Shown: positions 1,225-33,300, numbered from the stretch's first letter. The stretch is 39,590 bases of DNA from Nitrososphaeria archaeon (GCA_029776125.1 JARVJS010000006.1:1-39590), one strand, 5' to 3'. Notes: a model not told the origin generated them from the letters alone. Numbers and translations are program-made.

Positions 1225-1255
1225 TTTTGATACATCCATGTACCCTATATATAGG
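1225..1255 (+). promoter_or_regulatory. 31-bp recurrent operon-head motif, copy 1
   Basis: TTTTGATACATCCATGTACCCTATATATAGG, immediately followed by ATG at 1256. Confidence 0.75.
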
Positions 1256-1738
1256 ATGACATGGATTTCTCATAAGGCACTAACATTTTCTATACTGTTT
1301 GTTACAACAAACAACTTATGGTTTTCTTTGGTTGCAACAGTGGGAGCAATACTTCCCGATTTTCTTGAGGGAACAGGTTTTTTGTCTCTTAACCCATACA
1401 CTCAGTATAGGTGGAAGCAGAACCACAGAAAGATAACTCATTGGATATTTCCATATTTATTTTTGCTTTTGATAGCATGGATAATGTTTAAAGGAAATCC
1501 TTTTACCTTTAAGCCTGATTTTCAGTTTGCCCTTAATAATCGCTTGATTTTTTGGATTCTTTTCTCTGTTTGTGTAGGGGCTATATTTCATATACTGCAG
1601 GATGCTATCTCAGGAAAGGTTCCTTTACTTAATCCTAAAAGAAAAGATTTTGGTGTAAGGCTTATTCCTACAAAATCCACTATTGAATATATTTTCACAA
1701 TAGCTATAATATTAATAATTTTCATGATGAGGTATTAA
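1256..1738 (+). CDS. YdjM-family membrane-bound metal-dependent hydrolase
   Basis: MTWxSH start, GAILPD, HRKITH and HILQD motifs, plus hydrophobic segments. Start taken at the ATG right after the 31-bp motif. Confidence 0.8.
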   Translation: MTWISHKALTFSILFVTTNNLWFSLVATVGAILPDFLEGTGFLSLNPYTQYRWKQNHRKITHWIFPYLFLLLIAWIMFKGNPFTFKPDFQFALNNRLIFWILFSVCVGAIFHILQDAISGKVPLLNPKRKDFGVRLIPTKSTIEYIFTIAIILIIFMMRY

Positions 1739-1740
1739 AA

Positions 1741-2349
1741 ATGGAAAATAAACTGGACATCAAAGAATTACTTGCTTTAATAATTTACAAAAATGATTAC
1801 ATTTACCCTTTACTAAAAGATACTGTTCAATGCGTTATTCTTGACATTATTTTTTCACGAACTATACTTGAGGGGAAACCTTCTGTGAAAATAAGCTATC
1901 AGGATTTAGCACTTCTCGCAGGTTGTTCTGTAGGAACAGTAAAGTCTGCCTTGAAGGATTTAATACTGTCTAGTTTAATAAAAATTGTAGGAAACCATCG
2001 CAGTAGAATAGCAAACGAATACGCTGTTAACCTAAAAATACCTGAAAACTTGAAACAATTTATGCCACTGCAGAGATTACCTTATAAAACAGTAAGCCAA
2101 ATTATATCAGGAAATAATAGAAAACCTGTTTTACAGTTAACTGCTGAAGGAATGGCAATAGTTAACTCTATTAAAGCAAGTATGAGTCCTCATGAAAGGG
2201 CTTTATATGAGAAAAAAGCAGTAGATGAACTAATAATTGAAAATGTTGAAATAAATGATGAATCAATAGACAGAAAAATTACTGAAATAATAATTAGAGG
2301 GTTTAGCAGTGAAAAACGAAAAAAATATCTTGTCTCAGTTGAGCAATAA
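1741..2349 (+). CDS. winged helix-turn-helix protein (resembles a replication-initiator N-terminal HTH)
   Basis: ISYQDLALLAGCSVGTVKSALKDL HTH followed by a wing ending in NEY. Confidence 0.6.
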   Translation: MENKLDIKELLALIIYKNDYIYPLLKDTVQCVILDIIFSRTILEGKPSVKISYQDLALLAGCSVGTVKSALKDLILSSLIKIVGNHRSRIANEYAVNLKIPENLKQFMPLQRLPYKTVSQIISGNNRKPVLQLTAEGMAIVNSIKASMSPHERALYEKKAVDELIIENVEINDESIDRKITEIIIRGFSSEKRKKYLVSVEQ

Positions 2350-2866
2350 AATACTTGCTACGCTTTTTGTTTCAGATAGAGAAGTTTATTTGTCTGAGCT
2401 AGCAAATAAGTTTAATACAACTGAACAAGAAATTAAACTGTGTGTTTATGAAATAGCAAATTATTTAGAACCATCGTCCTTAAAATTGTCAATAACAGAA
2501 AAGTCTGTTATGCTTACAGTTGAGAAAGAATATTTAGAGTATGTTCCTAAAGAAATCGTTTTTCAAACACAACTGTCAGAGCAAGCACTGGAGACTCTTG
2601 CAGTTATTATTTACAAACAACCCTGTACAAAACAGGAAATAGAGCAAATAAGAGGAGTAGACTGCGAAAAGACAATTCAAACTTTACTTAACACAGGATT
2701 AATAAAAAAGATAGCAACAATTTCTCAAACAGGCAATCCCGTGCTTTACAGTGTTACGGAGAAATGCGTACACGCTTTTGGTTTTAAGTCCTATGAGGAT
2801 ATGCTTCAATGGATTAAAACAAAAGTAGAACAGAAAGAAGAACTATCTACAGTACGAGAATTATAA
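2309..2866 (+). CDS. scpB: ScpB-family (KITE) SMC accessory subunit
   Basis: LSEQALETLAVIIYKQPCTKQEIEQIRGV...G.P.LY..T signature. Confidence 0.88.
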   Translation: MKNEKNILSQLSNKILATLFVSDREVYLSELANKFNTTEQEIKLCVYEIANYLEPSSLKLSITEKSVMLTVEKEYLEYVPKEIVFQTQLSEQALETLAVIIYKQPCTKQEIEQIRGVDCEKTIQTLLNTGLIKKIATISQTGNPVLYSVTEKCVHAFGFKSYEDMLQWIKTKVEQKEELSTVREL

Positions 2867-2895
2867 CTTTCCCCCTTTTTTATGAATATTTCAAT

Positions 2896-2925
2896 TTGAC
2901 AAAACTGTTTTGTTTTTGTTATAAT
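2896..2925 (+). promoter_or_regulatory. sigma70-type promoter for sbcD-sbcC
   Basis: TTGACA-N18-TATAAT with a TG extension, 35 bp upstream of the ATG at 2961. Confidence 0.75.
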
Positions 2926-2960
2926 ATAATTATAACAAACAAGACAAAAGGAGCATTTCT

Positions 2961-4598
2961 ATGGAAATTAAAAATGCAATTAAAAACCTTTCTGATGCTC
3001 ACTTTTCGGTCATTTTGGCAAACTTTAACATTGGAAAACTCATACATGACGCATCGGTTATTAATAATGTCTCTCACGACGAAGTAATAAGAAAACTAAG
3101 TGAACATAATTTTTCTGTTAATTATCTTTACAACTGTTACAGAGCATATCAAAAGTTTAAGACTGAAAAGTTTCTTAAGAGTTTGAGAGCCTCTTTTGAA
3201 GGGTTGCTTACTTGGGGATTTATTGTAAACAACATACTTGAAGCACCAGAGGGAGACACACCTGAAGCAATTGCTTACTGGGAAGACAAATTAAGAAGTG
3301 CAGAGAAAATTCTTTATACTATTGAATACAATGTAGTTAAAAACTTTCATGCACTTCCTGAAGCAGTTAAATCTCAGATAGAAGGTTTACTTATTAGCCT
3401 TGGATATGAACTTCCAAATGGCAAAGAAAAGGAAAAAATTAAAATTGCTCACATAGCAGACATTCACATATCTGAAAAACTTACTACTGCAGGGAAGATC
3501 GTAATCAATCCTACTACAGGTCGCAATCGTAGACTTGATGACATACAAAGGTGCTTAACCTATGCAGTAGATAAAGCAATAGAGCAACAGTGTGACCTTG
3601 CACTTATAACAGAGCCCTTTGATAGATACAATCCTACCCCAAATGAAATAGACGTATTCGTAAACGAAGTGCTAAGACTTGCAGAACACATGCCTGTAGT
3701 CATTGAGCCAGGCAATCATGGAATGGATAGAAACCGCATGAACGCATCAGTATTCGTTTTTCTTAAAGGATATAACAATATTTTCGTAGCCGATGAGCCT
3801 ACTACATTTTATTACGATGGCAAGGTGTTAACTACAGAACCAACTATGCGGTTTGGTAAAAAAGGTTCCTGTTTTGTCCATGTCCTTCCTTATCCAGTTA
3901 AATATGGAAACGATGGTGATCCTGCAGAGGCAATGAAAGAACACATAGAAAGGTTTAAAAAGATAAAATCAGAAAATGCTTTATCTGTTTTACTTGCTCA
4001 CACAACAGTCGCAGGCTCAGAGGGAGCAGACTATGTTAAGTTTCTTTCAAGAGAACCTGTGCTTAAAATAGAAGATTTAAGTGGTTTTGACTATGTAGCT
4101 CTTGGGCACATTCATAGATTTCAAAAACTTTCAGACCGCATATACTATGCAGGAAACATTGAAAGAATAGATTTTGATGAAGAAGGACAATCTAAAGGTT
4201 TCATTATTGCAACCCTTGATACAGAAACTAAAGACCTTACTGTAGATTTCATTGAAACTCCTGCAACAGAGATGAAAACTGTTTCAGTGGATATGTTTAA
4301 AGAGATAGATTGGGAGCAAAGGATAAACAGTAATGTTCTTTATCGTGTAGTGGGTGTTGTAAATTCGGAGTCAAAGGTAGAACTCAAAGAAAGTGTTACA
4401 AAATTTCAGGAAAAAGCACCTCTTCTTTTAAAAGTGCAGGTAATAAGTAAGGAAAAACAAAATATACTTGCTCAAAGAATAACAGATAGCATTCAAGATG
4501 AGGAAGCATTGATTGAGTTTCTCAAAGCTAAAGAAATTCCTGAAAATTTTATTCCTGAAATAGTTGAGTATCACAAAAACATAAAGCAAAACGCATAA
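2961..4598 (+). CDS. sbcD: SbcD/Mre11-like metallophosphoesterase nuclease with a ~155-aa N-terminal extension
   Basis: HIADIH, PGNH, LLAH, ALGHIH and YAGNIERIDFDE motifs; adjacent to a Rad50-like ATPase. Confidence 0.85.
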   Translation: MEIKNAIKNLSDAHFSVILANFNIGKLIHDASVINNVSHDEVIRKLSEHNFSVNYLYNCYRAYQKFKTEKFLKSLRASFEGLLTWGFIVNNILEAPEGDTPEAIAYWEDKLRSAEKILYTIEYNVVKNFHALPEAVKSQIEGLLISLGYELPNGKEKEKIKIAHIADIHISEKLTTAGKIVINPTTGRNRRLDDIQRCLTYAVDKAIEQQCDLALITEPFDRYNPTPNEIDVFVNEVLRLAEHMPVVIEPGNHGMDRNRMNASVFVFLKGYNNIFVADEPTTFYYDGKVLTTEPTMRFGKKGSCFVHVLPYPVKYGNDGDPAEAMKEHIERFKKIKSENALSVLLAHTTVAGSEGADYVKFLSREPVLKIEDLSGFDYVALGHIHRFQKLSDRIYYAGNIERIDFDEEGQSKGFIIATLDTETKDLTVDFIETPATEMKTVSVDMFKEIDWEQRINSNVLYRVVGVVNSESKVELKESVTKFQEKAPLLLKVQVISKEKQNILAQRITDSIQDEEALIEFLKAKEIPENFIPEIVEYHKNIKQNA

Positions 4599-4609
4599 AG
4601 GAGATAGGA

Positions 4610-6796
4610 ATGATTCCTATAAAGTTACAGCTAATTAACTTTTTGTCCCATAAAAATACAGAGATTGATTTTACCAATCTTAATGCAATTTGCCTATATG
4701 GTGAAAATGGTGCAGGTAAAACTTCTATTCTCGATGGAATGCTTTACGCTTTGTACAGTTACACTTCTCGTGGCAGAGATGACTCTCTTATCAAACTTGG
4801 TGAAAGAAAAATGCGGGTTGAATTTCTATTTGAAATGGAAGGCACACTTTACAAAGTTATTAAGGAAAAAGAAATAGGCAAAACTAAAAATACTTCTCTA
4901 TACATGGTTACCCCTGATGAAGAAGTGCTTGTTGCAACAGGTGAAAGGGTAGATGAATACATAGAAAGCCTACTTGGTATGAATTACGATACCTTTACCT
5001 CTACCTTTTTTTTGCTTCAGGATAATGCATACAGATTTATACTTGCTACACCCACAGAAAGATACAAAATTCTCTTTGACATACTTGGTTTAGAAGTGTA
5101 TCAAGAATACAGAAAAGTAGCCTCTTACTCAAAGAGAGAAGCAGAAGGAAAGGTTACATTTTTTAGTCAACAGATTGCAGATAGGGTAAAGATTGTAGAA
5201 GGTAAGGATAGTCTTGTTAAGAGTTTACAAAACGTAGAGCAGGAACTTTCACGAATTGCATCGATTCGTATAGAGTCGGAAAAACATTACATAGACAAAG
5301 AAAAAGACCTCTCAACTATATTAGCCCGAATTAAAGAGATACAAAAAATAACTTCAACAGACATAGAAAAGGAGATCCTTAACTCTCAGAAAAAAATAGC
5401 ACAGTATCAGGCTACTGTTCGGATGAAACCACAGGTTGAGGAAGCATTGAAGCAAAAAGCAGAGTTAAATCAGAAACTTACGAATCTGTTTGAATCGGAA
5501 CGAATCGTAATGAAGGAATATGATGAGGCTAAGGCAAAGTATAACGAAGTAGTAGAAAGAGAAAATAAGGTAAAAATACAGATAGAACAGATAGAAAGTA
5601 AAATTCGTGAGTATTCGATACGAATCGAACAGAGTAAAAAAACAGTAGCAGATTACGAAAAAGTGGCAAATCTACTCAATCAGGTTCCTTGCGGTGGAGT
5701 AGGACAGTATGCTACTTGTAGGCTTATTGCGAATGCTGTAGAGTCAAAAGAGAAAATTCCACAGGTGCAGAATACTATAAAGCAGTATGAGGAAGAAATA
5801 AAAAAATTTGAACAAGAAAAGAAATCTCTCACTCAAATACTTCAAAAAATAGCAAAGGAAAAGGAACAAGTAATACAGTATGGAAAATCTGTATCTCAGA
5901 AGGTAAAAGAACTTCAAGCACAAAAAGATGCTTTAACAAAACAGATAGAGGAAGTAGAAAAACTCTGTAGTATGCAGTCCGCAGTAGCCTCTGCGGAAAA
6001 GGCATTAGAGATGGAACAGGAAAGGCTTAAGCAACTTGAACAGGAAAAGGAAAAACTTGCACAAACAAAACAAGAGGAACAAATTCTTGCAAAGTTGTAT
6101 AAAGAAACTCTCATTCAAGTTGAAACACTAAAAAAACAAGTAACAGAGTTAAAGAATAGTGAAACTGAATTAATCAGACAAAAATCTCAGATAGAAAGTC
6201 AGATAGAACTCTGCAATAAAGCAGAACTGGAACTTAAGGAACTACAGATTCAACTTGATAAGGCGAAAAAGAATGCTTACATTTACTCAGTGCTTGATGA
6301 AGCATACGAAAAGATACCCAAAATTATGTTTACAAATTACATAGTTGCACTTGAAAGTAAAGTAAATGAAATACTAAACAGAATTTCAAACACGGGTATG
6401 CAAGTAGAACTTGTAACTGAAAGGCAGACTAAAACAACTAAAACTGTAAAAAACACTCTTGACATAATTGTTTCAGACATCATTGGTGAAAGACGCATAG
6501 AAAACTTCTCAGGTGGTGAAAAGACAAGACTCACACTTGCATTCACAGTTGCCCTAAGTGAACTTGCAAGCAAAAAGGCAGGACACAGAATACTCACGCT
6601 TGCTATTGATGAACCACCTGGACTTGATATGCAGGGTTTTAAGGATTTTGCATCAACCATAAATCAGTTGATTCAAGAAGGAATGTTTGCAAAGTGCTTT
6701 GTAATATCGCACAGTGGTGAACTTATTGATGAGTTTGAACAGAAAATAAAAGTGCAGAAACTAAATGGAAGCAGTGAGGTTATGGTTGAGGTGTGA
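4610..6796 (+). CDS. sbcC: SbcC/Rad50-like SMC ATPase
   Basis: NFLSH, Walker A GENGAGKT, Q-loop, long coiled coil, FSGGE signature, IDEP Walker B and ISH. Confidence 0.9.
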   Translation: MIPIKLQLINFLSHKNTEIDFTNLNAICLYGENGAGKTSILDGMLYALYSYTSRGRDDSLIKLGERKMRVEFLFEMEGTLYKVIKEKEIGKTKNTSLYMVTPDEEVLVATGERVDEYIESLLGMNYDTFTSTFFLLQDNAYRFILATPTERYKILFDILGLEVYQEYRKVASYSKREAEGKVTFFSQQIADRVKIVEGKDSLVKSLQNVEQELSRIASIRIESEKHYIDKEKDLSTILARIKEIQKITSTDIEKEILNSQKKIAQYQATVRMKPQVEEALKQKAELNQKLTNLFESERIVMKEYDEAKAKYNEVVERENKVKIQIEQIESKIREYSIRIEQSKKTVADYEKVANLLNQVPCGGVGQYATCRLIANAVESKEKIPQVQNTIKQYEEEIKKFEQEKKSLTQILQKIAKEKEQVIQYGKSVSQKVKELQAQKDALTKQIEEVEKLCSMQSAVASAEKALEMEQERLKQLEQEKEKLAQTKQEEQILAKLYKETLIQVETLKKQVTELKNSETELIRQKSQIESQIELCNKAELELKELQIQLDKAKKNAYIYSVLDEAYEKIPKIMFTNYIVALESKVNEILNRISNTGMQVELVTERQTKTTKTVKNTLDIIVSDIIGERRIENFSGGEKTRLTLAFTVALSELASKKAGHRILTLAIDEPPGLDMQGFKDFASTINQLIQEGMFAKCFVISHSGELIDEFEQKIKVQKLNGSSEVMVEV

Positions 6797-6801
6797 ATTG
6801 A

Positions 6802-6832
6802 TTTTGATACATTCGGGTACCCTATATGTAGA
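6802..6832 (+). promoter_or_regulatory. 31-bp recurrent operon-head motif, copy 2 (upstream of the type IV cas operon)
   Basis: TTTTGATACATTCGGGTACCCTATATGTAGA. Confidence 0.75.
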
Positions 6833-6885
6833 GATGCATTAATATATATAGAGAACAAAGTAAAAACAAAAAAGGAGGAAAAACT

Positions 6886-7941
6886 ATGAAGTCAGTAGTA
6901 TTTGAAGGAACAATTAAAACTGTATCACCATTGTTAGTTATGTTGCCTGAACCCAAAGGAGCACCAAGAAGTGCGGATAAGTCACCAAAGCATCCAAAAG
7001 CACCTGTTGTAGTAGGAGACATGGTAGTAGAAGTCCCTGTAATTCCGGGGAACACTATAAGGGGTGCTTTAAGAAGACAACTTGCTTTTAGTATTCTTTC
7101 AAAATTTAAAGACCTTGACTATTTAACCATTACCTTTCTTACTTGTGGTGGAGTAATAGACCCAAAAGAGGAAGACAAGGTTAGTCTTAAGCCAAATGAA
7201 GTATTTGAGTATGTCAAAGCAATTAAAGATAAAAACGTTGTTGCAAGTCTTTTCGGGGGATCTTTGCCAATAATAAAGATGATAAAAAGTAGCCTTATAA
7301 CAGAATTTGCTTGGGCAAAAGTAGGAGAAATTTATGATGGCTATCCTTATGTAGATGACATTATGCTGAAAAATATTACGTTTGCTAAGTTAGATGAAAC
7401 ATTAAGAAATTATGACATTTACAGTCTCCTTTCAGAAGAAGGCAAAGCAGAACTTGAAAAAAGATTTCAGAGCAAGAAAGAGAGAGTTGAATCAGGAGAA
7501 GAAAAAGGTAATGGTAAAAAACAAACAGGAGCAGAAACCGCAAACATTATTGGGTCTCTTGGTGATGCAGTAGCACCTAATGTTGAGTTTCAACACAGAA
7601 TAGAACTAACAGAGCCAACAGAAAGAAACTTAGGTGGTTTACTTTATGCTTTAAAAATGTTTGCCGAAAATGATGCTACTTTAGGAGGACATGTAAGGTT
7701 TGGTTTTGGAAAAGTTTATTGCGAATACAAAGTTTATGAAATAGAAGGAAAAGAAAAAAAAGAAATTGGAGATATTGCTGGTGGATGGGCACGCTTTGAG
7801 AATGAAGGTTTTGCTAGATTTTGTGAAATTAGTCCATCTTTAAAACCTTATTTGGCTACTTTTCAAGATTATTTTAGCAACTTAGAGAAAAAAGATATTA
7901 TTGTTGTTATTCCACAGGGGAAAAAGTCAAAAGGAGAATAG
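6886..7941 (+). CDS. csf2: type IV CRISPR backbone protein Csf2 (Cas7)
   Basis: VPVIPGNTIRGALRR, LTCGG, SLFGG and a RAMP G-loop LGGHVRFGFG; GGAGG RBS. Confidence 0.88.
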   Translation: MKSVVFEGTIKTVSPLLVMLPEPKGAPRSADKSPKHPKAPVVVGDMVVEVPVIPGNTIRGALRRQLAFSILSKFKDLDYLTITFLTCGGVIDPKEEDKVSLKPNEVFEYVKAIKDKNVVASLFGGSLPIIKMIKSSLITEFAWAKVGEIYDGYPYVDDIMLKNITFAKLDETLRNYDIYSLLSEEGKAELEKRFQSKKERVESGEEKGNGKKQTGAETANIIGSLGDAVAPNVEFQHRIELTEPTERNLGGLLYALKMFAENDATLGGHVRFGFGKVYCEYKVYEIEGKEKKEIGDIAGGWARFENEGFARFCEISPSLKPYLATFQDYFSNLEKKDIIVVIPQGKKSKGE

Positions 7942-7942
7942 C

Positions 7943-8614
7943 ATGAGATTTGAGGTAAGCTTTGTAAACAAACAAAAAGCAGGGCTTGTTGTTTTAAATA
8001 CTAATACTCCTTTTGATGGAATACTATCTTATTTTGCTTATTTAAGAAATAAGGAAAAGTATTCTGAACAGGAAGCGGTGAGACTATCTCAAGAGGAACT
8101 TCCTTTAAAGAAGTATATTTTTGAAGGAGATTTCTTTTATTTTGCAGGTATGCCTGATATATTCACAACTACTCCTGTTAAAGATTACATGTTTGGTTTT
8201 ACTAACAAAATCTCTAATCCACAAACATACGAAAAAATGGGAAGCGATTTTGTAAAAAAACTGTTTTCAGTAAAAAAACTTGAACAGGGTAGTGGTGGGA
8301 CTGGTCCATACAAATGCTGGCTTGTTACAGTAAAAGCGACTTATTTTAACAAAATATCTTATGTTGTTGAAGTGGAAAATGAAAGAGTAGATGAATTTAT
8401 TTCTCTTGTAAAGAACATTAACGCAATTGGCAAATATACAAGGTTTGGATTTGGTAGGTTTGAAGAATGTGAAATAGTTGAAACAGACAAGCCAATAAGA
8501 AGATATATTCCTGTTAATGCAGGAATAAAAACAGAAAAACAGTTCATTATGTCAGCAACAAGACCACCATATTGGGGGAGGGAAACAGTATTATGCGGAA
8601 TGGCAGAGATATAA
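7943..8614 (+). CDS. csf3: type IV CRISPR protein Csf3 (Cas5)
   Basis: PFDGILSY, AIGKYTRFGFG G-loop and C-terminal RPPYW; ATG at 7943 after AGGAG. Confidence 0.85.
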   Translation: MRFEVSFVNKQKAGLVVLNTNTPFDGILSYFAYLRNKEKYSEQEAVRLSQEELPLKKYIFEGDFFYFAGMPDIFTTTPVKDYMFGFTNKISNPQTYEKMGSDFVKKLFSVKKLEQGSGGTGPYKCWLVTVKATYFNKISYVVEVENERVDEFISLVKNINAIGKYTRFGFGRFEECEIVETDKPIRRYIPVNAGIKTEKQFIMSATRPPYWGRETVLCGMAEI

Positions 8615-9339: not shown

Positions 9340-9351
9340 AGGAGGATACTT

Positions 9352-10291: not shown

Positions 10292-10991
10292 GTTTTAAAA
10301 GAACCAGTATGGAGTGAAAACCATAGCCTCTTTAGTTTGGTGGTGGATAAGTAAAAAAGTTTTAAAAGAACCAGTATGGAGTGAAAACCTTTTTTGTCTC
10401 CTTCTGCTTTATAAAGTGAGTCATAGTTTTAAAAGAACCAGTATGGAGTGAAAACCGAACTCGACGATGACAGACGAGATGAAATAGAGCTCTTGTTTTA
10501 AAAGAACCAGTATGGAGTGAAAACAGCATGAACAAAAAAACGAGAAAAAAACATGCGAGCAAGTTTTAAAAGAACCAGTATGGAGTGAAAACCGGTCAGA
10601 TGGGCTCTTAGGGAAAAACTCAAAGACAGTTTTAAAAGAACCAGTATGGAGTGAAAACATGTTTTTTTAAGAGTGCAATGCACTCTCTAATATAGTTTTA
10701 AAAGAACCAGTATGGAGTGAAAACGTGAAAGAATACAGTAAAGAATATCAATCTCCAGAGGTTTTAAAAGAACCAGTATGGAGTGAAAACATATATAGAG
10801 GAGGTGAAAATGTCAAAAGTAATCAGAGTTTTAAAAGAACCAGTATGGAGTGAAAAGAGAGAACGGTGGTTGGAAAGGATAAGGAGACTGAAAGGTTTTA
10901 AAAGAACCAGTATGGAGTGAAAAGTTGACTGTTTCTGATGTGGTCACATTCTGTCAGATGAGTTTTTAAAAAAACCAATATGGAATGAATT
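10292..10991 (+). CRISPR. CRISPR array 1 (type IV): 11 repeats, 10 spacers of 36-39 nt
   Basis: 30-nt repeat GTTTTAAAAGAACCAGTATGGAGTGAAAAC at 10292, 10359, 10426, 10495, 10563, 10629, 10695, 10761, 10828 and 10895, with a degenerate terminal copy at 10962 that sets the + orientation. Confidence 0.98.
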
Positions 10992-11036
10992 TGCATTATA
11001 TATATTAGAAACAAAAAAAACAAAGGAGGAGATAAT

Positions 11037-13133
11037 ATGGAAATTTTAACTCAACTGTCAAAGAAAAAACTTATCACAAAAAGAAAAGAACAAGTAGAAC
11101 TATCTCAAAGCATATTGGATACCTTTGAGCAAAAGCGTATTGGTATTTTTGAAAGCCCTACAGGAACAGGAAAAACTCTTGCTTTTATGTCTGCGGTGGT
11201 GGAGTTTTGTCTTAAGAATTCTGCAAACAAGGTAATTATATCTACAAGTTCAAAGCAACTACAATCTCAAATGGTTCAGGAAATAGAAAAAATTAGCAAG
11301 GTTAAGGATTTAAGTAATTTTAGATATGTTATTGTTAAAGGTAAATCCAACTACTTACTCAGGAAAAAGATTGAAGAAAACCTTAAGAGATGTCTTAATC
11401 AAAAAAACTGTGAAATCTATAAAAAACTACTTAAAGCAGCTGACCAGGTTGATGGTGATATAGAGTTACTTTCTGATGAAATTATAGAACAGGTTAATTC
11501 AATAGCACCTGAAATGCTTGAAAGTTTAAGAACACCTGTAAGACTACCAATTTCTGAGACTGATTATGCATTGAAGGTTAGAGAACAGGCAGAAAAAGCA
11601 AATCTTATTATTGTGAATCACAGTTTATTTCTTTGTTATAACCTTCTTTTACAAAAAGAGTCAAATCCATTTTTTAAGACTTTTGCTTATGAATCTGAGA
11701 CACTTCCAGAAGACAGATCTATATCTGTAATTATAGATGAAGCACATACACTTGAAAATGTTGCTCAAAGACTTTTTGCTAAAGAAACTGCTATAAGAGA
11801 AATTCTCTTTGTGGCAGAACATTTGCTAAAAACAGTTTCATCTGTTAAATCTAATACAAAGTTTGTAATGGAGTATGGGAAAATAAAAGAATATATAGAA
11901 AACATAGCAAACAAAGCAAGAAAAGAAAAAGTTGAATACATACACATAACCAAAGACAAGATAAATTTTGATCCTGTAGTTAAATTAATAAGCACATATA
12001 TAGAATCATTTAAAATATTTGGCAAAAGGATTATGTCTCTTATTCCAAAAAATGATGATTTTATAAATCTAAAAGAAAAAGCATCAAAGATTAACGAAAT
12101 AATAAATGTTATCTACAATATTCTGAGAGAAAATAAACCTATTAAGAGTCACTGTTACCTCATTACTTTTTCTCCAGAAAAAAAATATCCTTCCTTTGCA
12201 GTAATAACACCCAGAATTGGTGGAGCTATGCACAATGTATTAGTAAACTTTGATTCCATAGTTCTTTTAAGTGGAACTTTAAGAGATCCAGACAAAGACA
12301 ACATTGATAATGATGCAGATAGGTTTAAAATTATCAGAACAAGACTTGCTATTGACTCATTAATTCCAAAGCGAAAAGAAGGTTTTTCTATAAATGCAAG
12401 AGTGTTTCAGGGATTTGATTTAAAAAAACTTGCTACTGTATATGTTTATCCAGAAGGACCATATCCACCTAAACTCAATGAAGAGAAAAACAAAGATAAG
12501 GATTACAGAGAATTATTAAAGAAAGAATATTTACTACCTCAAAAGGAAAGAATACTTTCTATCCTTAAAAACAGCAAAAAAGCACTAATTCTTACAACAG
12601 CTCACTATGAAACAGAGTTCTACAGAGAAATGCTTATGAATATTTCAGATAAAACAATAATAACTTACCCTGACAATGGTAGTTCTCTAATTCAAAAAGT
12701 AGAGGAATTTAAAAATTCTGATTCTGCAGTTTTTATTACAGCAAGTGCATGGGAAGGATTAGATGCTAAAATAGACACATTGATTATTTCCAAACTACCT
12801 TTTGCTTCTCCTAATGATCCATACTATATTGCATACCACGAAAATGAGAAAAACTATTTCCAAAGTTACTTATCAGAAAAAGACGCTCAAATAAGAGCAA
12901 ATTTAAGAGAACACATGAAAAGAGAATTTGATACATTTATTAAGTTTAGGCAAGGATTAGGTAGAGCAATAAGAGGAGGAGATGATTACTGCAATATTCA
13001 CATACTTGACCCAAGAGCATATGAACCAAAATATTATCAGAAGTTTTTACTTAATACTTATAAAGTTGCAGAGGTTAAGCAAAGAATAGAGGAAAGTAGT
13101 AAATCTGTAAGCAGTTCTGTTGTCGATATTTAA
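11037..13133 (+). CDS. dinG: CRISPR-associated DinG-family helicase (Csf4/CasDinG)
   Basis: RxxQ motif, ESPTGTGKT, KGKSNY, DEAH, LSGTL, WEGLD and QGLGRAIR; lies between two arrays. Confidence 0.9.
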   Translation: MEILTQLSKKKLITKRKEQVELSQSILDTFEQKRIGIFESPTGTGKTLAFMSAVVEFCLKNSANKVIISTSSKQLQSQMVQEIEKISKVKDLSNFRYVIVKGKSNYLLRKKIEENLKRCLNQKNCEIYKKLLKAADQVDGDIELLSDEIIEQVNSIAPEMLESLRTPVRLPISETDYALKVREQAEKANLIIVNHSLFLCYNLLLQKESNPFFKTFAYESETLPEDRSISVIIDEAHTLENVAQRLFAKETAIREILFVAEHLLKTVSSVKSNTKFVMEYGKIKEYIENIANKARKEKVEYIHITKDKINFDPVVKLISTYIESFKIFGKRIMSLIPKNDDFINLKEKASKINEIINVIYNILRENKPIKSHCYLITFSPEKKYPSFAVITPRIGGAMHNVLVNFDSIVLLSGTLRDPDKDNIDNDADRFKIIRTRLAIDSLIPKRKEGFSINARVFQGFDLKKLATVYVYPEGPYPPKLNEEKNKDKDYRELLKKEYLLPQKERILSILKNSKKALILTTAHYETEFYREMLMNISDKTIITYPDNGSSLIQKVEEFKNSDSAVFITASAWEGLDAKIDTLIISKLPFASPNDPYYIAYHENEKNYFQSYLSEKDAQIRANLREHMKREFDTFIKFRQGLGRAIRGGDDYCNIHILDPRAYEPKYYQKFLLNTYKVAEVKQRIEESSKSVSSSVVDI

Positions 13134-13705: not shown

Positions 13706-13735
13706 TTGACAATTTTGTCATAATTTTGTTATAAT
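13706..13735 (+). promoter_or_regulatory. sigma70-type promoter for the helicase operon, with overlapping IR
   Basis: TTGACA-N18-TATAAT with a TG extension; TGACAA-TT-TTGTCA inverted repeat at 13707-13720. Confidence 0.75.
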
Positions 13736-16034: not shown

Positions 16035-16202
16035 ATGGAAAATACAAAAGTAAAGAAAACAAAGAAGCCTGCAGAAATGAAAAGAACAAGTTATATTCTT
16101 GTGAGACTTACTGATGAGGAAAAGAAAAGGCTAAAGAAACTTGCATACTCTCAAGGACTTGATATATCTGAGTATGTAAGAAAAAAGGTTTTTGACTTGT
16201 GA
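16035..16202 (+). CDS. 55-aa ribbon-helix-helix DNA-binding protein (absent from the ORF track)
   Basis: GGTGAGGTG RBS; MENTKVKKTKKPAEMKRTSYILVRLTDEEKKRLKKLAYSQGLDISEYVRKKVFDL has the RHH pattern (VRLT.EE...L...A...G...SEYVR). Confidence 0.8.
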   Translation: MENTKVKKTKKPAEMKRTSYILVRLTDEEKKRLKKLAYSQGLDISEYVRKKVFDL

Positions 16203-16230
16203 TAGAGAAATCTTTAAAGTCCTTATCCAA

Positions 16231-16261
16231 TAAGGATACTCTGAGGTACCCTATATATAGG
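16231..16261 (+). promoter_or_regulatory. 31-bp recurrent operon-head motif, copy 3 (upstream of cas10)
   Basis: TAAGGATACTCTGAGGTACCCTATATATAGG; ATG 5 nt downstream. Confidence 0.72.
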
Positions 16262-20919: not shown

Positions 20920-21104
20920 GTAGGAAAAGAGACCTGTTTTAAAGGGGATAAGGACATGTGGTCGTTTAGAAATGCCTCCACAATCTCCTTCGTAGGAAAA
21001 GAGACCTGTTTTAAAGGGGATAAGGATTGGTTTAGAACAGATTCTAACCCTTCGCATCTACTTTTGTAGTAGGAAAAGAGACCTGATTAAAAGGGGATAA
21101 ACAA
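20920..21104 (+). CRISPR. CRISPR mini-array 3 (type III): 3 repeats, 2 spacers (36 and 41 nt)
   Basis: 36-nt repeat GTAGGAAAAGAGACCTGTTTTAAAGGGGATAAGGAC at 20920 and 20992, degenerate at 21069; AT-rich leader at 20740-20919. Confidence 0.92.
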
Positions 21105-21128
21105 AAAAAAACAAAAAGGAGGAATAAG

Positions 21129-22307: not shown

Positions 22308-22316
22308 GGGAGGGCT

Positions 22317-23282
22317 ATGCAGATAGAGATACCTTATCAAACATATACTGTTATTGCAGAGGCTAAAAACACTCTTGAATTACCTCTGTTTTATGGTGCA
22401 ACAATTCGTGGCGGTTTAGGTTATGTGTTAAAGGAATTCACCTGCACAAATAAAAAATTGAATACCTGTTCCTCTTGTTATTTAATTCAGAAGTGTAGAT
22501 ACAGTTTTCTTTTTGAGGCGGTCTCCAAAGTAAATGGAGCAGGGCAGTTTTTCTTTAAACAAGGTGAAAAAATTCCTCCACCTTTTGTTATTGAATCAAC
22601 ATTAGCGAATACAAAAGTAGTTCAAAAGGGAAGTTCTTTTTCCTTTTCTTTTACTTTGTTTGGAGAGGCAATTAAGTATTTAACATATTTTGCTTATGGA
22701 TTTGAGCAATTGGGTAAGTTAGGACTTGGCGGGAAAGGGGGGAAATATTGTTTAAAGGCAATAACAGTTGACAATGGTGATACTTCTGTTCCTGTTTATC
22801 AAGATGGAGTTTTGCAAGCAGTAGAAAATAAGATTTTTAAATTATCTATTGATACAGATAATTGTGAAAAATTAAATAATGTAAAATTATGTTTTGATAC
22901 ACCTGTAAGAATTAAAATAAATGGCAAATTAATGACTCCTGATGATTTTAATTTTCTTAAATTTTTTGCTTCACTTCTCAGAAGGCTTTCCTGTTTATTG
23001 TATTTTTATTGCGGAAAACAAGTTATAGATATAGAGGAAGTAAAACATTTAATTCAACTTGCAGAAACAGTTAAAGTCAACAAGAAAAACCTTCACTGGT
23101 TTGACCTATCAAGATATTCAACAAGGCAAAAAAGCAAAGTAAAGCTTGGCGGTTTTGTTGGTCATGTCACATTAAATCAGGTTCCTGTTCCTGCTTATGA
23201 AATATTAAAAGCAGGAAAAATAATTCACATATCAAAAAATGCAAGTTTTGGATTGGGAAAGATTTCCTTAATTTGCCTTTGA
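22317..23282 (+). CDS. cas6: second Cas6 (type III-associated, with N-terminal Cys cluster)
   Basis: GATIRGGLG, C..C...C, PPPFVI, F.TPVRI, RYSTRQ and HISKNASFGLG. Confidence 0.85.
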   Translation: MQIEIPYQTYTVIAEAKNTLELPLFYGATIRGGLGYVLKEFTCTNKKLNTCSSCYLIQKCRYSFLFEAVSKVNGAGQFFFKQGEKIPPPFVIESTLANTKVVQKGSSFSFSFTLFGEAIKYLTYFAYGFEQLGKLGLGGKGGKYCLKAITVDNGDTSVPVYQDGVLQAVENKIFKLSIDTDNCEKLNNVKLCFDTPVRIKINGKLMTPDDFNFLKFFASLLRRLSCLLYFYCGKQVIDIEEVKHLIQLAETVKVNKKNLHWFDLSRYSTRQKSKVKLGGFVGHVTLNQVPVPAYEILKAGKIIHISKNASFGLGKISLICL

Positions 23283-23307
23283 TACATTAAGGTACCCTAT
23301 ATATAGG
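23277..23307 (+). promoter_or_regulatory. 31-bp recurrent operon-head motif, copy 4
   Basis: CTTTGATACATTAAGGTACCCTATATATAGG. Confidence 0.75.
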
Positions 23308-23336
23308 AAAGCAAAAAAACTAACAAGGAGGCACTT

Positions 23337-25579: not shown

Positions 25580-25590
25580 TCCTTATCCAA

Positions 25591-25621
25591 TTTTGATACA
25601 TTCGTGTACCCTATATATAGG
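25591..25621 (+). promoter_or_regulatory. 31-bp recurrent operon-head motif, copy 5
   Basis: TTTTGATACATTCGTGTACCCTATATATAGG; shares the upstream AGTCCTTATCCAAT with copy 3. Confidence 0.75.
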
Positions 25622-25667
25622 AGGGATAAAAATTAACCCTTCAAAACTTTCTCGTGGAGGTTCATCC

Positions 25668-27815: not shown

Positions 27816-27837
27816 AATATAAAAAGGGGCATAAAAT

Positions 27838-28311: not shown

Positions 28312-28323
28312 AAAGGAGGAAAT

Positions 28324-29151: not shown

Positions 29152-29167
29152 GAAAGGAGATTAAATT

Positions 29168-30013: not shown

Positions 30014-30031
30014 TAAAAGACAGAGACAAAC

Positions 30032-30080
30032 AAAAAACCCACTAAGGGTTCTCTTAATGAGAAACGCCTTAGTGGGTTTT
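30032..30080. terminator. bidirectional intrinsic terminator at a convergence point
   Basis: AAAACCCACTAAGG...CCTTAGTGGGTTTT stem with A/T tracts on both sides. Confidence 0.75.
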
Positions 30081-30084
30081 CCCC

Positions 30085-30355
30085 AATAAAAAAGCCCGCC
30101 GAATGCACGGGCGGTTGGTGAGGGAACCAACCCTCCCCGTCGGCGGGCTAAAGCAAATTTGTTAGGTGGAGATTAAATTATTCTCCACCTAACAAACCGA
30201 AATACTGACTCTCCCCCAACCCATCCAAGATGGAATTAGGAGAGAATAAAAAAAGCTTATTTCTGGATTTTTTTATCTCTCAGGTGCCCCTGAGAGAATT
30301 TTTATAGATTGGCTTGTTAGCCAATCTATAATAGCCCTTTGCGGGCTAAAAAATA
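30085..30355 (-). ncRNA. candidate multi-hairpin non-coding RNA
   Basis: Six consecutive hairpins and no ORF; TTGACA-N17-TAGTAT promoter at 30390-30362; the last hairpin is followed by a U-tract. Confidence 0.45.
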
Positions 30356-30436
30356 TAATTTATACTAACCTATACTTTACAGGTTGTCAAGTAGCAAAAT
30401 TTGATAGGCGAAAATTGACAATCAAAAGTTTAACCA

Positions 30437-30484
30437 AATAAAAAAGCCCGCTAAGGGCTCTCTTGAGGAGACTCCTTGCGGGCT
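30437..30484 (-). terminator. repeated terminator-like element, copy 1 (others at 32224-32278 and 34077-34131)
   Basis: AGCCCGC..AAG-[CTC/GAG inner stem]-CTTAGCGGGCTTTTTT directly after a minus-strand stop codon. Confidence 0.75.
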
Positions 30485-30494
30485 ATGAGATAAA

Positions 30495-30722
30495 TTATTC
30501 AGTTCCATTTAATTCCGCTAAAACCATCTCTACAACTTCTGTTCTATCAACACCTGGATCTTCGTCATCCCAAATTACTTCGTATTCAGGCTCAAGCTCT
30601 AATCCACCAACTATATTTTTTGTTTCTATAACTACCCCTTCATAGGTTTTACCTTTCCATTCAATTTCAAAAGGGATAGTTCTTTCGTATGATACCTCAT
30701 CCTCAAATACTCTTATTTTCAT
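30495..30722 (-). CDS. small acidic hypothetical protein
   Basis: AGGAGG RBS; D/E-rich; paralog of 30879-31115 (PFE....GKTYEG). Confidence 0.75.
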   Translation of the reverse strand: MKIRVFEDEVSYERTIPFEIEWKGKTYEGVVIETKNIVGGLELEPEYEVIWDDEDPGVDRTEVVEMVLAELNGTE

Positions 30723-30868
30723 AGATACACCTCCTTTAATATTTTGTTTTTCTTATTCTTAAAATTCTTACACTCATTCTTACTGCTTCTTTTCCTTTTA
30801 TCCTCTGCTACCCTATGGGCTTTGCGTAGGAAAAGAACCGCATCCATTGGTAATCTTGCTTTTATCAT
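30719..30868 (-). CDS. 49-aa basic peptide (absent from the ORF track)
   Basis: AAGGAGGTG RBS; MIKARLPMDAVLFLRKAHRVAEDKRKRSSKNECKNFKNKKNKILKEVYL; ATGA overlap with the next gene. Confidence 0.7.
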   Translation of the reverse strand: MIKARLPMDAVLFLRKAHRVAEDKRKRSSKNECKNFKNKKNKILKEVYL

Positions 30869-30878
30869 GTGCACCTCC

Positions 30879-31115
30879 TTAATTTGTTAATTTTTGTGAT
30901 TCTTCTAAAAAGCAATTTAACACTTTCTTAAAGATTTCTGCTTCAGTAACAGGGTCTATATCCTCAAGAAAAGTAATTTCTGCATCCTCTTCAAAAGTTC
31001 CATTGACATCAAGGTAAGATATTTCAAGTATGCCTTCATAAGTTTTGCCTTGATGCGTAACTTCAAAGGGATAGGTTTTAATTATGTTTTCTTTGTCATA
31101 AAATATTTTTACCAT
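30879..31115 (-). CDS. small acidic hypothetical protein
   Basis: AGGAGGG RBS; paralog of 30495-30722. Confidence 0.75.
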   Translation of the reverse strand: MVKIFYDKENIIKTYPFEVTHQGKTYEGILEISYLDVNGTFEEDAEITFLEDIDPVTEAEIFKKVLNCFLEESQKLTN

Positions 31116-31142
31116 AATTTTCCCTCCTTTTTTTAATTAAAA

Positions 31143-31613
31143 TTACATTTTAATTCCATAGGCATTTTTCTCAATTTGTTCTTGTAATGGAATGACCTCT
31201 AATGGAATTTTACTTGATAGAATATTGATGAAATTGTCCAAATCCCGACTGTCGTTTTCTACTTTGTATTCATACCACTTACTTTCAATCTCCTCTGGAT
31301 TAATCTCTATTGGAATACGAATGATTTTTTGAGTGAAATTACTATCTTCATCAAAAAATACAATATGCTGATAATCTTGTTCTAAATAGTTCCTTATCAA
31401 AGAAAAATGTTCACCTTTGATAAAAAGTTCTATTAGACATTCTGCACAAAGAGGATTGGCATCCCCATGATTTAAGATAAGGTCTAAATGTTCTTTTGCT
31501 TTTTCGTAACTTTCCCCCATCCAATAAAGATAATCCGTCTCTTTAGCACAATTTCCACATTTGTTAGTACCTAATTCTTTAGCAGAAAATTTAAATATTT
31601 TTTCCTTTTTCAT
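31143..31613 (-). CDS. hypothetical protein with CxxC...CxxC
   Basis: AGGAG RBS; CGNC and CAEC. Confidence 0.7.
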   Translation of the reverse strand: MKKEKIFKFSAKELGTNKCGNCAKETDYLYWMGESYEKAKEHLDLILNHGDANPLCAECLIELFIKGEHFSLIRNYLEQDYQHIVFFDEDSNFTQKIIRIPIEINPEEIESKWYEYKVENDSRDLDNFINILSSKIPLEVIPLQEQIEKNAYGIKM

Positions 31614-31659
31614 ATAATTCTCCTTTTTAAATAAATTAATTCGTCAAAGACGAATTTCA

Positions 31660-31986
31660 CTACATTAATAAAACTTTTAATTCATCAAAAACTGCAAATT
31701 TTAAATCCTCAAAATCTTTCTTTGTTATATCTGTTTCTCTCCCGTTTTTAATTTTTATTACTCCAAGCGTGTTGAAATAATTAGTTTTCCATTTGGGAGT
31801 TTCAATGTAAATTAAGTTTCCATCTCTTTTTAAATTCACATTGTTTAAGACAATATTATATCCATGTTTAAATCCAATAATATCTGCCACAAATGCTCCA
31901 ATGTCATAAATAAACTCAGCTTCCTCAAAATCATTAAATCCAAATCTCCATAAAAATTTTTCTCTTGATATAGTTTGATTTTTCAT
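31660..31986 (-). CDS. hypothetical protein
   Basis: AGGAGG RBS; first gene downstream of promoter module A. Confidence 0.7.
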   Translation of the reverse strand: MKNQTISREKFLWRFGFNDFEEAEFIYDIGAFVADIIGFKHGYNIVLNNVNLKRDGNLIYIETPKWKTNYFNTLGVIKIKNGRETDITKKDFEDLKFAVFDELKVLLM

Positions 31987-32180
31987 ATAACCTCCTTTTA
32001 ATAAATAATTAATCCGCCAAGGGCGGATTTTATAGAAATATTAAATTACTTGTTTTTAAGGATATGACCTTTTTGGCGGGATCTGAGGTTACATAACCTC
32101 AGAGAAAGGGATTGGAAACAAACTATTACACTATCAGATTACCACTATATCCCACAGGTGTCAAGTGGTAAATTTTGATA
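31987..32180 (-). repeat. promoter plus structured leader module, copy A
   Basis: TTGACA(32164-32159)-N17-TAATCT, TCTGAGG..CCTCAGA hairpin and AATCCGCC..GGCGGATT hairpin; homologous to 35656-35853. Confidence 0.8.
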
Positions 32181-32193
32181 GTCATCTTGTTTG

Positions 32194-32278
32194 GTGGAAA
32201 ATTTTTCCACCATGTATAAAGCCAATAAAAAAGCCCGCTAAGGGCTCTCTTGAGGAGAGACTTCCTTGCGGGCTTTGA
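32194..32278. repeat. 85-bp direct repeat, copy 1 (copy 2 at 34047-34131)
   Basis: GTGGAAAATTTTTCCACCATGTATAAAGCCAATAAAAAAGCCCGCT... is near-identical at both sites. Confidence 0.9.
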
Positions 32279-32290
32279 TGTTGGAGTTAA

Positions 32291-33181
32291 TTATGTAAAT
32301 AAAGTTTTTGATGGAGTTTTCTGCTGTGCTGCCTTCCTTCTTGTTGCCAAAATCTCTACCAATATCTGTTTAAGCTTAATTTGAAAATCAACAAAGAAAT
32401 CCCAATCATCAGGAACAACAAACACTAAAAAATCAGATGAAGCAAAGCCATTCACCTGCCGAAAAACATCGGAGCATGCTATCACAAGATCAGGCTTATA
32501 AGGATATTTGCCATTGAACTGAGACTTCAGATGATAGAGAAATTGCAGGAGTCTGTTTCTTTGGTAGGTGATTTTTATTTTCTCAATAAAAGCATATAAA
32601 GTTTTCACAACTACCTGTTTTTTATCACCAATTTTTCTAAATAAGCAATCCTGCAGAGAGAAATATATATTGCCTTTAGTCTCTACTTGAGGAAGGCTCT
32701 TGCCATAATACTGTTCCACTTTTTCAGTTATCAACTTCTTTTCGATTGGTGTTAACGATGGAATTAAAGAAAGTTGTTCTGTTTGCGAATAAAAACGCTC
32801 ACTGTTAAGATAGTTTTCGTTCTTATAAAGCAAGATATTCCCAAAAATATCGGTTTTGCCTGTTAGGAAGTCCATTAATTTCTGTTGTTTGTTATCTGTT
32901 TCATAGTTAGGATGAAAATCCCAATAGGTAGTGAAATTAACATCTTCCGCAAAATGCCTATAATAGTCTTCAGGTAGATTTTGAAGTTGTCTTCTGCGTT
33001 GGTCAGAAACACAGTTATTGATAACATCCCAAAATATCTCCCAATAGGGAAACTCCTTTTCAAGTTCAGAAGGAAAATCCATTGGAATAGCTCCTTCTTG
33101 TGAGTAGAAAATAACAAGTTCTCCTGTGCGAGAATCCTTCCCGAAAAACCTCACTGTGCCTGTTGCTTTAACTTCTCCCAT
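32291..33181 (-). CDS. hypothetical protein
   Basis: Long ORF; AGGAGG RBS supports the start MGEVK at 33181. Confidence 0.7.
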   Translation of the reverse strand: MGEVKATGTVRFFGKDSRTGELVIFYSQEGAIPMDFPSELEKEFPYWEIFWDVINNCVSDQRRRQLQNLPEDYYRHFAEDVNFTTYWDFHPNYETDNKQQKLMDFLTGKTDIFGNILLYKNENYLNSERFYSQTEQLSLIPSLTPIEKKLITEKVEQYYGKSLPQVETKGNIYFSLQDCLFRKIGDKKQVVVKTLYAFIEKIKITYQRNRLLQFLYHLKSQFNGKYPYKPDLVIACSDVFRQVNGFASSDFLVFVVPDDWDFFVDFQIKLKQILVEILATRRKAAQQKTPSKTLFT

Positions 33182-33269
33182 AAAAACCTCCTTAATTGTT
33201 ATATAAAGAGCCATACGCTCCTTATATAATTAATGCAATTTGAAATATTAAAAATTTTTGTTAGACAAA

Positions 33270-33300
33270 TTTTGATTAATATAGGTACCCTATATGTAGG
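33270..33300 (+). promoter_or_regulatory. 31-bp recurrent operon-head motif, copy 6
   Basis: TTTTGATTAATATAGGTACCCTATATGTAGG, immediately followed by ATG at 33301. Confidence 0.75.

Follow-up and report, generated by a model that had tools for sequence, protein, structure and literature searches.

The stretch of DNA analysed here (the window) comprises 39,590 nucleotides of an assembly titled Nitrososphaeria archaeon (GCA_029776125.1, JARVJS010000006.1:1-39590), and it carries part of a conjugative element in which six operons, including those of two CRISPR (clustered regularly interspaced short palindromic repeat)-Cas systems, are each headed by the same 31-bp motif. Positions 1..1188 on the + strand hold the 3' part of a bacterial glmM gene, which is chromosomal flank; the element starts after it. 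The first-pass annotation of this sequence had described the motif, without insertions or deletions, at 1225, 6802, 16231, 23277, 25591 and 33270, and five of these sites fit the 31-mer with at most three mismatches. The sixth, at 16231, is in register and free of indels, but its 5' half differs, with 5 mismatches in 12 specified bases; it reads TAAGGATACTCTGAG and has CCTTATCCAA directly before it. The 3' core GTACCCTATATRTAG, which had been called invariant, is exact in all six copies (+ strand, at 1240, 6817, 16246, 23292, 25606 and 33285), compared with a chance expectation of 0.10 and a maximum of 1 in shuffled sequence, and the palindrome CCTATATATAGG was found in four of the six, the number originally given.

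The 5' half of the motif comes in two forms, which we call V1 and V2. Copy 1 (1225..1255, V1, TTTTGATACATCCAT followed by GTACCCTATATATAG and G) lies 37 nt past the glmM stop and heads ydjM, a winged helix-turn-helix (wHTH) gene and an scpB-like gene. Copy 2 (6802..6832, V1) heads the type IV-A genes csf2-csf3-csf1-cas6, with a Shine-Dalgarno (SD)-led ATG at 6886, and with DinG and two arrays farther on. Copy 3 (16213..16261, V2) is made up of a -35-like TTTAAA, the palindrome TCCTTATCCAATAAGGA, GATACT and the invariant core, and heads a type III operon of cas10, csm2-4, a Card1-like gene and cas6. Copy 4 (23277..23307, V1) heads a gene for a zinc-ribbon protein of 92 amino acids (aa) and topB; copy 5 (25581..25621, V1), with the half-module CCTTATCCAA before it, stands at the head of nrdD, nrdG, dut and GGACT; and copy 6 (33270..33300, V1), which has the most diverged 5' half (TTTTGATTAATATAG), heads a DUF5131 gene. 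All six copies are on the + strand, and the genes downstream are those that the first-pass annotation had named. Its spacings also hold: copies 1 and 6 abut ATG codons, at 1256 and 33301, and the cas10 ATG at 16267 lies 5 nt past the end of copy 3.

We searched the whole assembly, 1,241,443 bases in 167 contigs, and found 20 copies of GTACCCTATATRTAG, 18 of them exact and two with one mismatch. They are confined to four contigs, labelled C2 (1 copy), C85 (10), C115 (the window, 6) and C146 (3). When the entire assembly was scanned with a weight matrix derived from the copies, exactly these 20 sites scored at least 33.7 bits, and no site fell in the range from 14 to 33.7 bits. The motif is thus absent from the rest of the assembly, outside the four element contigs, in agreement with the earlier proposal of an element-specific signal.

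Every one of the 20 copies is upstream of a gene on the same strand, both CRISPR-Cas systems included, and this also applies to a divergent, back-to-back pair on C85 (5674 on the - strand and 5766 on the +) that fronts the integrase gene and its neighbour. The copies lie 1-60 nt from start codons or SD sites, where start codons were assigned by open reading frame (ORF) and Pfam alignment only. Of the 20, 17 are wholly outside ATG-initiated ORFs of at least 60 aa, and the remaining three overlap ORFs solely where these extend upstream in frame; the non-coding share of the element contigs is 12.4%. A GC-rich hairpin with a run of T, the form of an intrinsic terminator, ends about 10 nt before three copies, so that the promoter must lie within the motif-bearing cassette. 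In eight pairs of orthologous promoters, each pairing this element with a relative, the 31-mer is identical at 237 of 248 positions, and the 55-nt flanks, compared without gaps, at 243 and 225 of 440. When two near-identical pairs from the int region are set aside, the figures are 176 of 186 for the 31-mer versus 136 and 127 of 330 for the flanks.

The 14 V1 copies have the 5' half TTTTGATACATT, and the six V2 copies have TAAGGATAC(T/A)(C/T)(T/G). V2 is always preceded by AAAGTCCTTATC(C/T)A(A/G), which completes the palindrome TCCTTATCCAATAAGGA, and the left half of this palindrome module also stands before three V1 copies. Bases 13-15, at the position that a promoter discriminator would take, are free to vary, and the block from G16 to G30 has 2 substitutions in 300 positions. 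A TG is present at positions 4-5 of all V1 copies and of no V2 copy; in V1 it is followed by a hexamer at 7-12, which is TACATT in nine copies, TACATC in four and different in one. Numbered as a -10 element, this hexamer has T-12 and A-11 in 13 of 14 copies (T7/A8 in 19 of all 20) and matches TATAAT at no more than four of six positions. The best -35 match of V1 averages 2.0-2.4 of 6, which is the background level. V2 has a -35-like TTCAAA 17 bp upstream (five copies) or TTTAAA 16 bp upstream (one copy), both four-of-six matches, a score of at least 4 being reached at 14.6% of random positions; its -10-like hexamer is GATACT in five of six copies and GATACA in the other. In the conserved site, the 10-bp CTATATATAG is symmetric in 16 of 20 copies, GTAC is symmetric, and the partner of C20, position 31, is G in 7 of 20.

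Because it contains TFIIB genes and has no match to sigma-70 region 2, the assembly as a whole is that of an archaeal metagenome-assembled genome (MAG). The genes of C2, C85 and C146 are those of a diderm bacterium. C85 carries the F-type type IV secretion system (T4SS) genes TraG, H, V, B, K, E, L, U, N, C, F and TrbC, a type IV pilus with secretin, DsbC, signal peptidase I, a coupling protein, an HD-domain relaxase, a tyrosine integrase and capsule-export genes. ParM, two HU-like genes, split RecD2-like genes and TraT are found on C146, and RecT and chemotaxis-type genes on C2; a fifth element contig, C149, has no copy of the motif and carries a DNA methylase, an amidoligase, an amidotransferase and an IS200/605 element. 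The glmM fragment is 66% identical to its counterpart in a MAG titled Thermodesulfovibrio, 63% to that in another Nitrospirota genome and 38% to the archaeal MAG's own copy; the gene that follows glmM in the Thermodesulfovibrio MAG differs from that in the window. Based on the diderm genes and the glmM identities, we read the window as a junction between a bacterial chromosome and an integrative and conjugative element (ICE), binned with an archaeon. As far as sequence can indicate, the element is most likely an ICE of a thermophilic, Thermodesulfovibrio-like bacterium of the Nitrospirota. It is in at least five pieces, and gaps remain between the contigs.

In all, at least five contigs (~122 kb) of a conjugative element and its chromosomal flank lie within this archaeal MAG. 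Motif-bearing contigs also occur in two MAGs titled Candidatus Micrarchaeia, which suggests recurrent mis-binning of the element with low-GC archaea.

In the Thermodesulfovibrio MAG (~1.8 Mb) there are four copies of the core, all on one conjugative contig, and no copy with one mismatch or fewer beyond that contig. A longer pattern was found in three other MAGs only among all species-representative genomes, two titled Micrarchaeia and one Thermodesulfovibrio, and on four metagenome contigs. A viral contig collection yielded 0 motif matches, and PLSDB yielded one weak protein match only, from the NusA-like query. A search of sequencing runs listed four DNA runs of hot-spring metagenomes and none of RNA. 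A full-text literature search for ACCCTATATATAG returned no paper printing the sequence, and no relevant work on Thermodesulfovibrio conjugative plasmids was apparent from titles and the beginnings of abstracts. The cassette is a practical marker for contigs of this element family that have been binned in archaeal MAGs, in at least three assemblies.

The promoters of a related element are less uniform. Five of its six variant promoters keep TG(T/A)TACATT, with AGTTACATT in its place in the sixth, while the 3' box is degenerate (ATCCTTTATATATAG, AATTCCTTTTTATAG, TCCCCTTATTATAG, ATTCCCTCTTTGTAAG and ATCCTTTTAAGTAG); among these is the orthologous nrdD promoter at locus L032, which corresponds to window copy 5. 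Another Nitrospirota genome, G113, contains a more distant, integrated ICE of the same family, with Tra proteins 40-60% identical and with a NusA-like gene, a coupling protein, a relaxase, ParM, an HU-like gene and TopB. The G113 ICE has no copy of the window motif and has its own box, TGGTTACCAGA, at no fewer than 14 co-oriented sites fronting operons. One of its copies, GGTTACCAGACGCCTGTTATATATAG, spans 26 nt, the same as the distance from GATAC to TATAG in the window element. A separate box in each lineage argues for a co-evolving reader that is encoded by the element.

Two further features of these elements were observed. The G113 ICE has two clusters of a ~12-24 nt repeat, CTGACAGCATTGCTGA, that flank uncharacterised genes (L043-L046; G113:C7 45600-45660 and 49156-49280) and are possible replication or partition iterons. 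On C2, genes for a Cache-domain methyl-accepting chemotaxis protein (MCP), a CheW-CheZ fusion, a receiver domain, a GGDEF-FliL protein and an HDOD protein lie beside RecT at the edge of the element (2021-8298). Since the interior of the G113 ICE holds MCP- and CheW-like genes (G113:C7 52974-53423 and 65911-67827), the chemotaxis-type genes of C2 may be element cargo and not host flank.

The element also has canonical sigma-70 promoters, which allow a direct comparison with the motif. Two are 12/12 matches of the form TTGACA-18-TATAAT with TG, at 2896..2925 on the + strand, upstream of the Metallophos and LmuB-like genes, and at 13706..13735 on the + strand, upstream of genes for a UvrD-like helicase, RNase H and a ribbon-helix-helix (RHH) protein. 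An 11/12 match at 39213..39242 on the - strand serves an HTH_3 gene (region 39205-39242) and has an 18-bp perfect palindrome, TATCTCAAATTTGAGATA, in its spacer; a further 11/12 match lies at 11061 on the - strand. The -10 region TTTTGTTATAAT occurs at 2915 and 13725 in the window and at 550 and 2033 on the - strand of C149. The first-pass annotation had held the motif to be unlike these promoters, which is only half right: the 5' half of V1 is identical to the extended -10 in TTTTGTTATAAT at 9 of 12 positions.

Canonical promoters of this element can also have leaderless geometry. The HTH_3 ATG lies 7 nt past the -10 of a normal promoter, and for the two such genes found, HTH_3 and TnpA on C149, the distance is 6-7 nt. 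From this arrangement and the palindrome in the spacer, HTH_3 is probably a leaderless, self-repressed regulator. The gene heads a set of TaqI-like restriction-modification genes, and its homologue in the Thermodesulfovibrio MAG adjoins a RelE/HigB-like gene.

The reading that we favour, and to which we would give an even chance, is that a host-type promoter has been fused with an element-specific box. Each copy would be a compact promoter cassette in two parts, of which the 5' part is read by the sigma-70 RNA polymerase of the host. V1 would be an extended -10 promoter that lacks a -35 (TTTTG-A-TACATT, in which TGn precedes a hexamer with T-12, A-11 and usually T-7), and V2, which lacks the TG, would use its -35-like hexamer instead, with the palindrome TCCTTATCCAATAAGGA in the spacer as an extra operator. 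Sigma-70 promoters trade TG against -35, and the same trade-off between V1 and V2 predicts a transcription start close to A18 of the 31-mer, which makes T17 the -1 base. The preservation of the 5' half while the box degenerates in relatives points in the same direction. On this numbering, the invariant GTACCCTATATRTAG would cover about -2 to +13 and serve all copies as an operator or leader; the box would most likely be the site of one element-encoded regulator lying over the start site, or alternatively the shared first 13 nt of every transcript. In other words, the operons for transfer, pilus, partition, recombination and nucleotide metabolism and those of both CRISPR-Cas systems would be under one control. 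The position, orientation, copy number, restriction to the element, conservation and sigma-70-like features of the motif are read directly from the DNA; from them we infer where transcription starts, that the polymerase is that of the host, and that there is a regulator and of what kind.

Several observations weigh against this reading. The likeness to sigma-70 promoters is good but not conclusive, and is suggestive and not decisive because the loose pattern TTTGnTAnnnT is frequent in such AT-rich DNA (78 occurrences, compared with 53 +/- 7 in shuffles); moreover, V1 and V2 amount to two sequence families and not to 20 independent trials. Five of the 14 V1 copies lack T-7 (nine have it), G16 and T17 are invariant though they lie upstream of the predicted start, and the G113 box TGGTTACCAGA fits sigma-70 rules poorly. 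Palindromic symmetry of the box is only partial in the window element and lacking in relatives, which would be unusual for the site of a dimeric repressor. Five of the 20 genes start 1-6 nt past G30 without a usefully spaced SD: ydjM and DUF5131 with 1 nt between, the integrase gene with 4, the NusA-like gene with 5 and cas10 with 6. With a start at A18, these five would need SD-independent initiation from a leader of 14-19 nt (14 nt, ACCCUAUAUAUAGG, for both ydjM and DUF5131); an SD core (GGAG, GAGG or AGGA) is present upstream of 96 of the 122 ORFs on the element contigs. Finally, no regulator for the box was identified among the element genes examined.

The first-pass annotation had proposed an element-encoded sigma factor or activator, and our searches did not bear this out: on the four contigs they found no gene for a sigma-70, a sigma-54, an FlhC-type activator or a T7-type polymerase. 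Profiles for Sigma70_r2, Sigma54_DBD, NusG and the T7-type polymerase had no match anywhere in the assembly, and r4_2 gave only two sub-threshold helix-turn-helix matches in the window. FlhC (PF05280) was absent from C2, C85, C115 and C146, its sole match being on C150 (E 0.044); FlhD was not searched. PF00940 (RNA_pol, the T7-type polymerase) had 0 matches in the assembly and in five related genomes, a weak negative given that the control matched nowhere and that assembly of the element is incomplete. Three sigma-70-family genes are present in each of the host-type genomes G001 and G113, none of them on an element contig, and a search of the relatives' element contigs for the same gene types was likewise negative. 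Nor was there any ORF of at least 500 aa without a Pfam family on the four contigs, except for one encoding a TraN-like protein of 689 aa.

Individual candidates for the box factor fared no better. The wHTH gene at 1741-2349 encodes a protein with a MarR-like winged helix in its structural model (predicted local distance difference test score, pLDDT, 76; best Foldseek match weak, E 4e-3); it has 10 relatives only, and no homologue on the contigs of the related elements. HTH_3 is probably not the box binder, as it has its own, different palindrome in its own promoter. The non-transfer proteins shared with the G113 ICE are the NusA paralogue, an HD protein, an HU-like protein, ParM and its partner, TopB, TraT, MCP- and CheW-like proteins and conserved proteins of 104, 134 and 188 aa. 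The ESM Atlas gave no usable match for the conserved 134-aa and 188-aa proteins, and none of the proteins common to both ICEs could be tied to the box. Further candidate genes for the box factor are the RHH gene at 16035-16202 and the two HU-like genes of C146, at 5020-5286 and 6227-6583.

A different view is that the 15-mer marks an element-specific transcription system and not a plain operator, either as part of a promoter whose transcripts start at the 3' G and are leaderless or as a nut/ops site for the NusA paralogue. We would lean against this view. In its first form, an unrecognised element factor or polymerase would read the whole 31-mer as a dedicated class of promoter and start transcription at G30-A32, yielding leaderless or nearly leaderless mRNAs. 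The sequence permits two start-site assignments, and this leaderless one, close to what the first-pass annotation had suggested, is a possible choice between them. Its appeal lies in the 3' end of the motif. Two unrelated genes have their ATG at position 32, and their protein N-termini align with the Pfam models from the beginning (YdjM 1-149 to model positions 1-141, DUF5131 4-234 to model positions 2-214), three more start codons follow 4-6 nt past G30 without a spaced SD, and positions 30-32 are purines in all 20 copies. The span between the G of GATAC and the last G of the motif measures 26 nt in the window element, and the same span recurs in two of the six variants of the related element that end in TAG (two others are 1 nt shorter) and in one G113 copy, where index 27, with counting begun at the T of TGGTTACCAGA, is occupied by an ATG. 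For transcription from 30-32 there is no fitting sigma-70 -10 hexamer, the best candidates matching at two of six positions, so a start there would need recognition by something other than sigma-70, given that no -10-like hexamer lies 6-7 nt before position 32. Invariance over 15 nt resembles the promoters of phage single-subunit polymerases. Against all of this stands the failure to find a cognate sigma, FlhC or polymerase gene on the four contigs, though the PF00940 part of that negative is weak, and such a promoter leaves unexplained both the extended -10 likeness and the -35-like hexamer of the copies that lack TG. On balance, we consider a dedicated promoter class doubtful.

In the second form, the promoter would be the sigma-70 type that we favour, and the box would act as a nut- or ops-like loading site in the nascent RNA or the non-template strand. 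A factor loaded there would join the polymerase and read through terminators between or within operons, the candidate being the NusA paralogue encoded at 43186-44007 on C85. Its gene heads the operon of the coupling protein and relaxase, and it has relatives at 74% identity (L031) and 51% (G113; 52% by tblastn). This NusA-like family is, however, reported to be widespread, whereas the box is lineage-specific, and no NusG or RfaH-like gene was found. Intrinsic terminators directly upstream of three copies would suit such a function, as would a box that is directional and not palindromic in relatives; the conservation of G16 and T17, outside the predicted RNA, would not. We judge this improbable.

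Two observations would make sense if the box is transcribed, as in the reading that we favour; the second also suits a loading site. In 3 of 20 copies AGGGT, which pairs with ACCCU of the box, occurs within 20 nt downstream. In the traH-traG leader (C85 11142-11202, - strand), a perfect hairpin of ~16-18 bp is built on the box, with (TA)4G plus the 9 nt behind it as one arm, and a run of seven T (U in the RNA) comes after the hairpin; this is a leader terminator or attenuator, and it is not conserved in two relatives.

We regard it as very unlikely that the copies are recombination joints, that is, portable homology or site-specific crossover points for the exchange of modules, with promoter activity secondary. 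Homology between the window and L032 around the type III module does resume at the motif, the cas block being absent in L032; contigs break at copies, at the end of C85 and the start of C2; and near-identical int-region modules lie within elements that are otherwise 50% identical. Crossover sites would nonetheless need no rule of orientation, and all 20 copies, including the divergent pair, are co-oriented with the downstream gene, 1-60 nt from start codons or SD. The sole tyrosine integrase has a copy in front of its own gene, and the inverted or direct repeats that typically flank attC or dif-like sites were not seen.

The remaining readings were rejected. An archaeal promoter, considered in view of the TFIIB genes and the lack of sigma in the MAG, does not agree with the bacterial features of the contigs: SD sites, intrinsic terminators, signal peptidase I, a secretin and T4SS parts of the outer membrane. 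Nor does it agree with a GlmM 66% identical to that of the Thermodesulfovibrio MAG versus 38% to the copy of the archaeal MAG itself, and with (TA)4 as the TATA box, starts would fall inside ydjM and DUF5131. Against a sigma-54 promoter stand GATAC/GTACC where GG at -24 and GC at -12 are expected, the lack of a Sigma54_DBD match in the assembly and the lack of an AAA+ activator among the annotated ORFs. Judged by eye, the spacing or key bases also misfit sigma-28, sigma-32 and sigma-54, and the confinement of the core to the element contig of the Thermodesulfovibrio MAG, at up to one mismatch, speaks against all three; an integration host factor (IHF) site at TTGATA lacks the TTR arm. CRISPR self-targeting of the box was dismissed because spacers match the element only as chance hits of 13-17 nt.

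Other features of the window deserve mention. The block at 1256-6796 encodes YdjM, the MarR-like wHTH protein, an ScpB-like protein, a metallophosphoesterase of 545 aa and an SMC-type ATPase of 728 aa, the last with LmuB of Lamassu as its top PADLOC match (E 6e-17); this may be a defence or maintenance module built around an SMC protein, and of unusual composition. One spacer of a type IV-A array (10791-10827, ATATATAGAGGAGGTGAAAATG...) resembles the motif's 3' end with an SD and a start codon behind it. No full-length match to this spacer was found in the DNA examined, and it may target the operon head of a competing, related element. The type III repeat (20920-21103) ends in GGATAAGGA, the reverse complement of the TCCTTATCC module (16221-16230) that is found upstream of nine motif copies; this 9-nt match could be chance. 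On the - strand, 30440-35701 holds a run of small uncharacterised genes of 75 to 388 aa, each its own unit, four of which have a near-identical hairpin (AATCCGCCCTTGGCGGATT or a close variant) right before the SD. The run looks like a cassette array, because the 3' ends of the preceding ORFs are also similar.

To our knowledge, the known conjugative elements governed by one regulator come from Proteobacteria and Firmicutes. In the kor regulon of RK2 (IncP-1), operators for KorA, KorB and KorC occur at many operon promoters; they are palindromes, and their repressor genes are known. The window element is similar in having a short, near-identical site that overlaps or adjoins sigma-70-like elements at most operon promoters, an arrangement that would allow coordinate control of transfer, maintenance and cargo genes, and differs in that its box is directional and lies at a fixed distance from an extended -10 without a -35. 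Extended -10 sigma-70 promoters have TG one base before a hexamer with T-12, A-11 and T-7 and need no -35. V1 has this TG in all copies and no -35 above background, with T-7 in 9 of 14 copies, and it has the TTTTGnTA context in common with the element's own 12/12 consensus promoters. Its hexamer is TACATT or TACATC, however, and not TATAAT, and a start region invariant over 15 nt is unlike that of ordinary promoters. Promoters of the T7 group have a fixed length, near-invariant copies and a TATA-G end followed by purines. The cassette, with ~20 near-invariant copies, has all of these, but no polymerase gene was found in the assembly or in five related genomes, a negative that is weak.

The promoters activated by SetCD, in SXT/R391 ICEs, and by AcaCD, in IncA/C plasmids, provide a further parallel in organisation. 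The SetCD box is a 19-bp class II activator site at or just upstream of the -35 (PMC4344509). These are MOBH/F-type elements with one signal before int, tra and accessory operons, and the element described here, in which one signal likewise precedes such operons, combines an HD-domain relaxase with an F-type T4SS. In contrast to the SetCD box, its invariant box is 3' of the -10-like element and not at the -35, and no FlhC-type gene was found on the four contigs (the search did not extend to FlhD).

A single fixed cassette is thus shared by ~20 operons of a Nitrospirota element, covering F-type secretion, the type IV pilus, partition, recombination, nucleotide metabolism, the type IV-A and III-A CRISPR-Cas systems and cargo. 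If the box is the site of a single regulator, defence and transfer would be co-regulated, which bears on how plasmid-borne CRISPR systems are deployed. If instead it marks an element-specific transcription system, the transfer genes and two CRISPR-Cas systems would be under one private switch.

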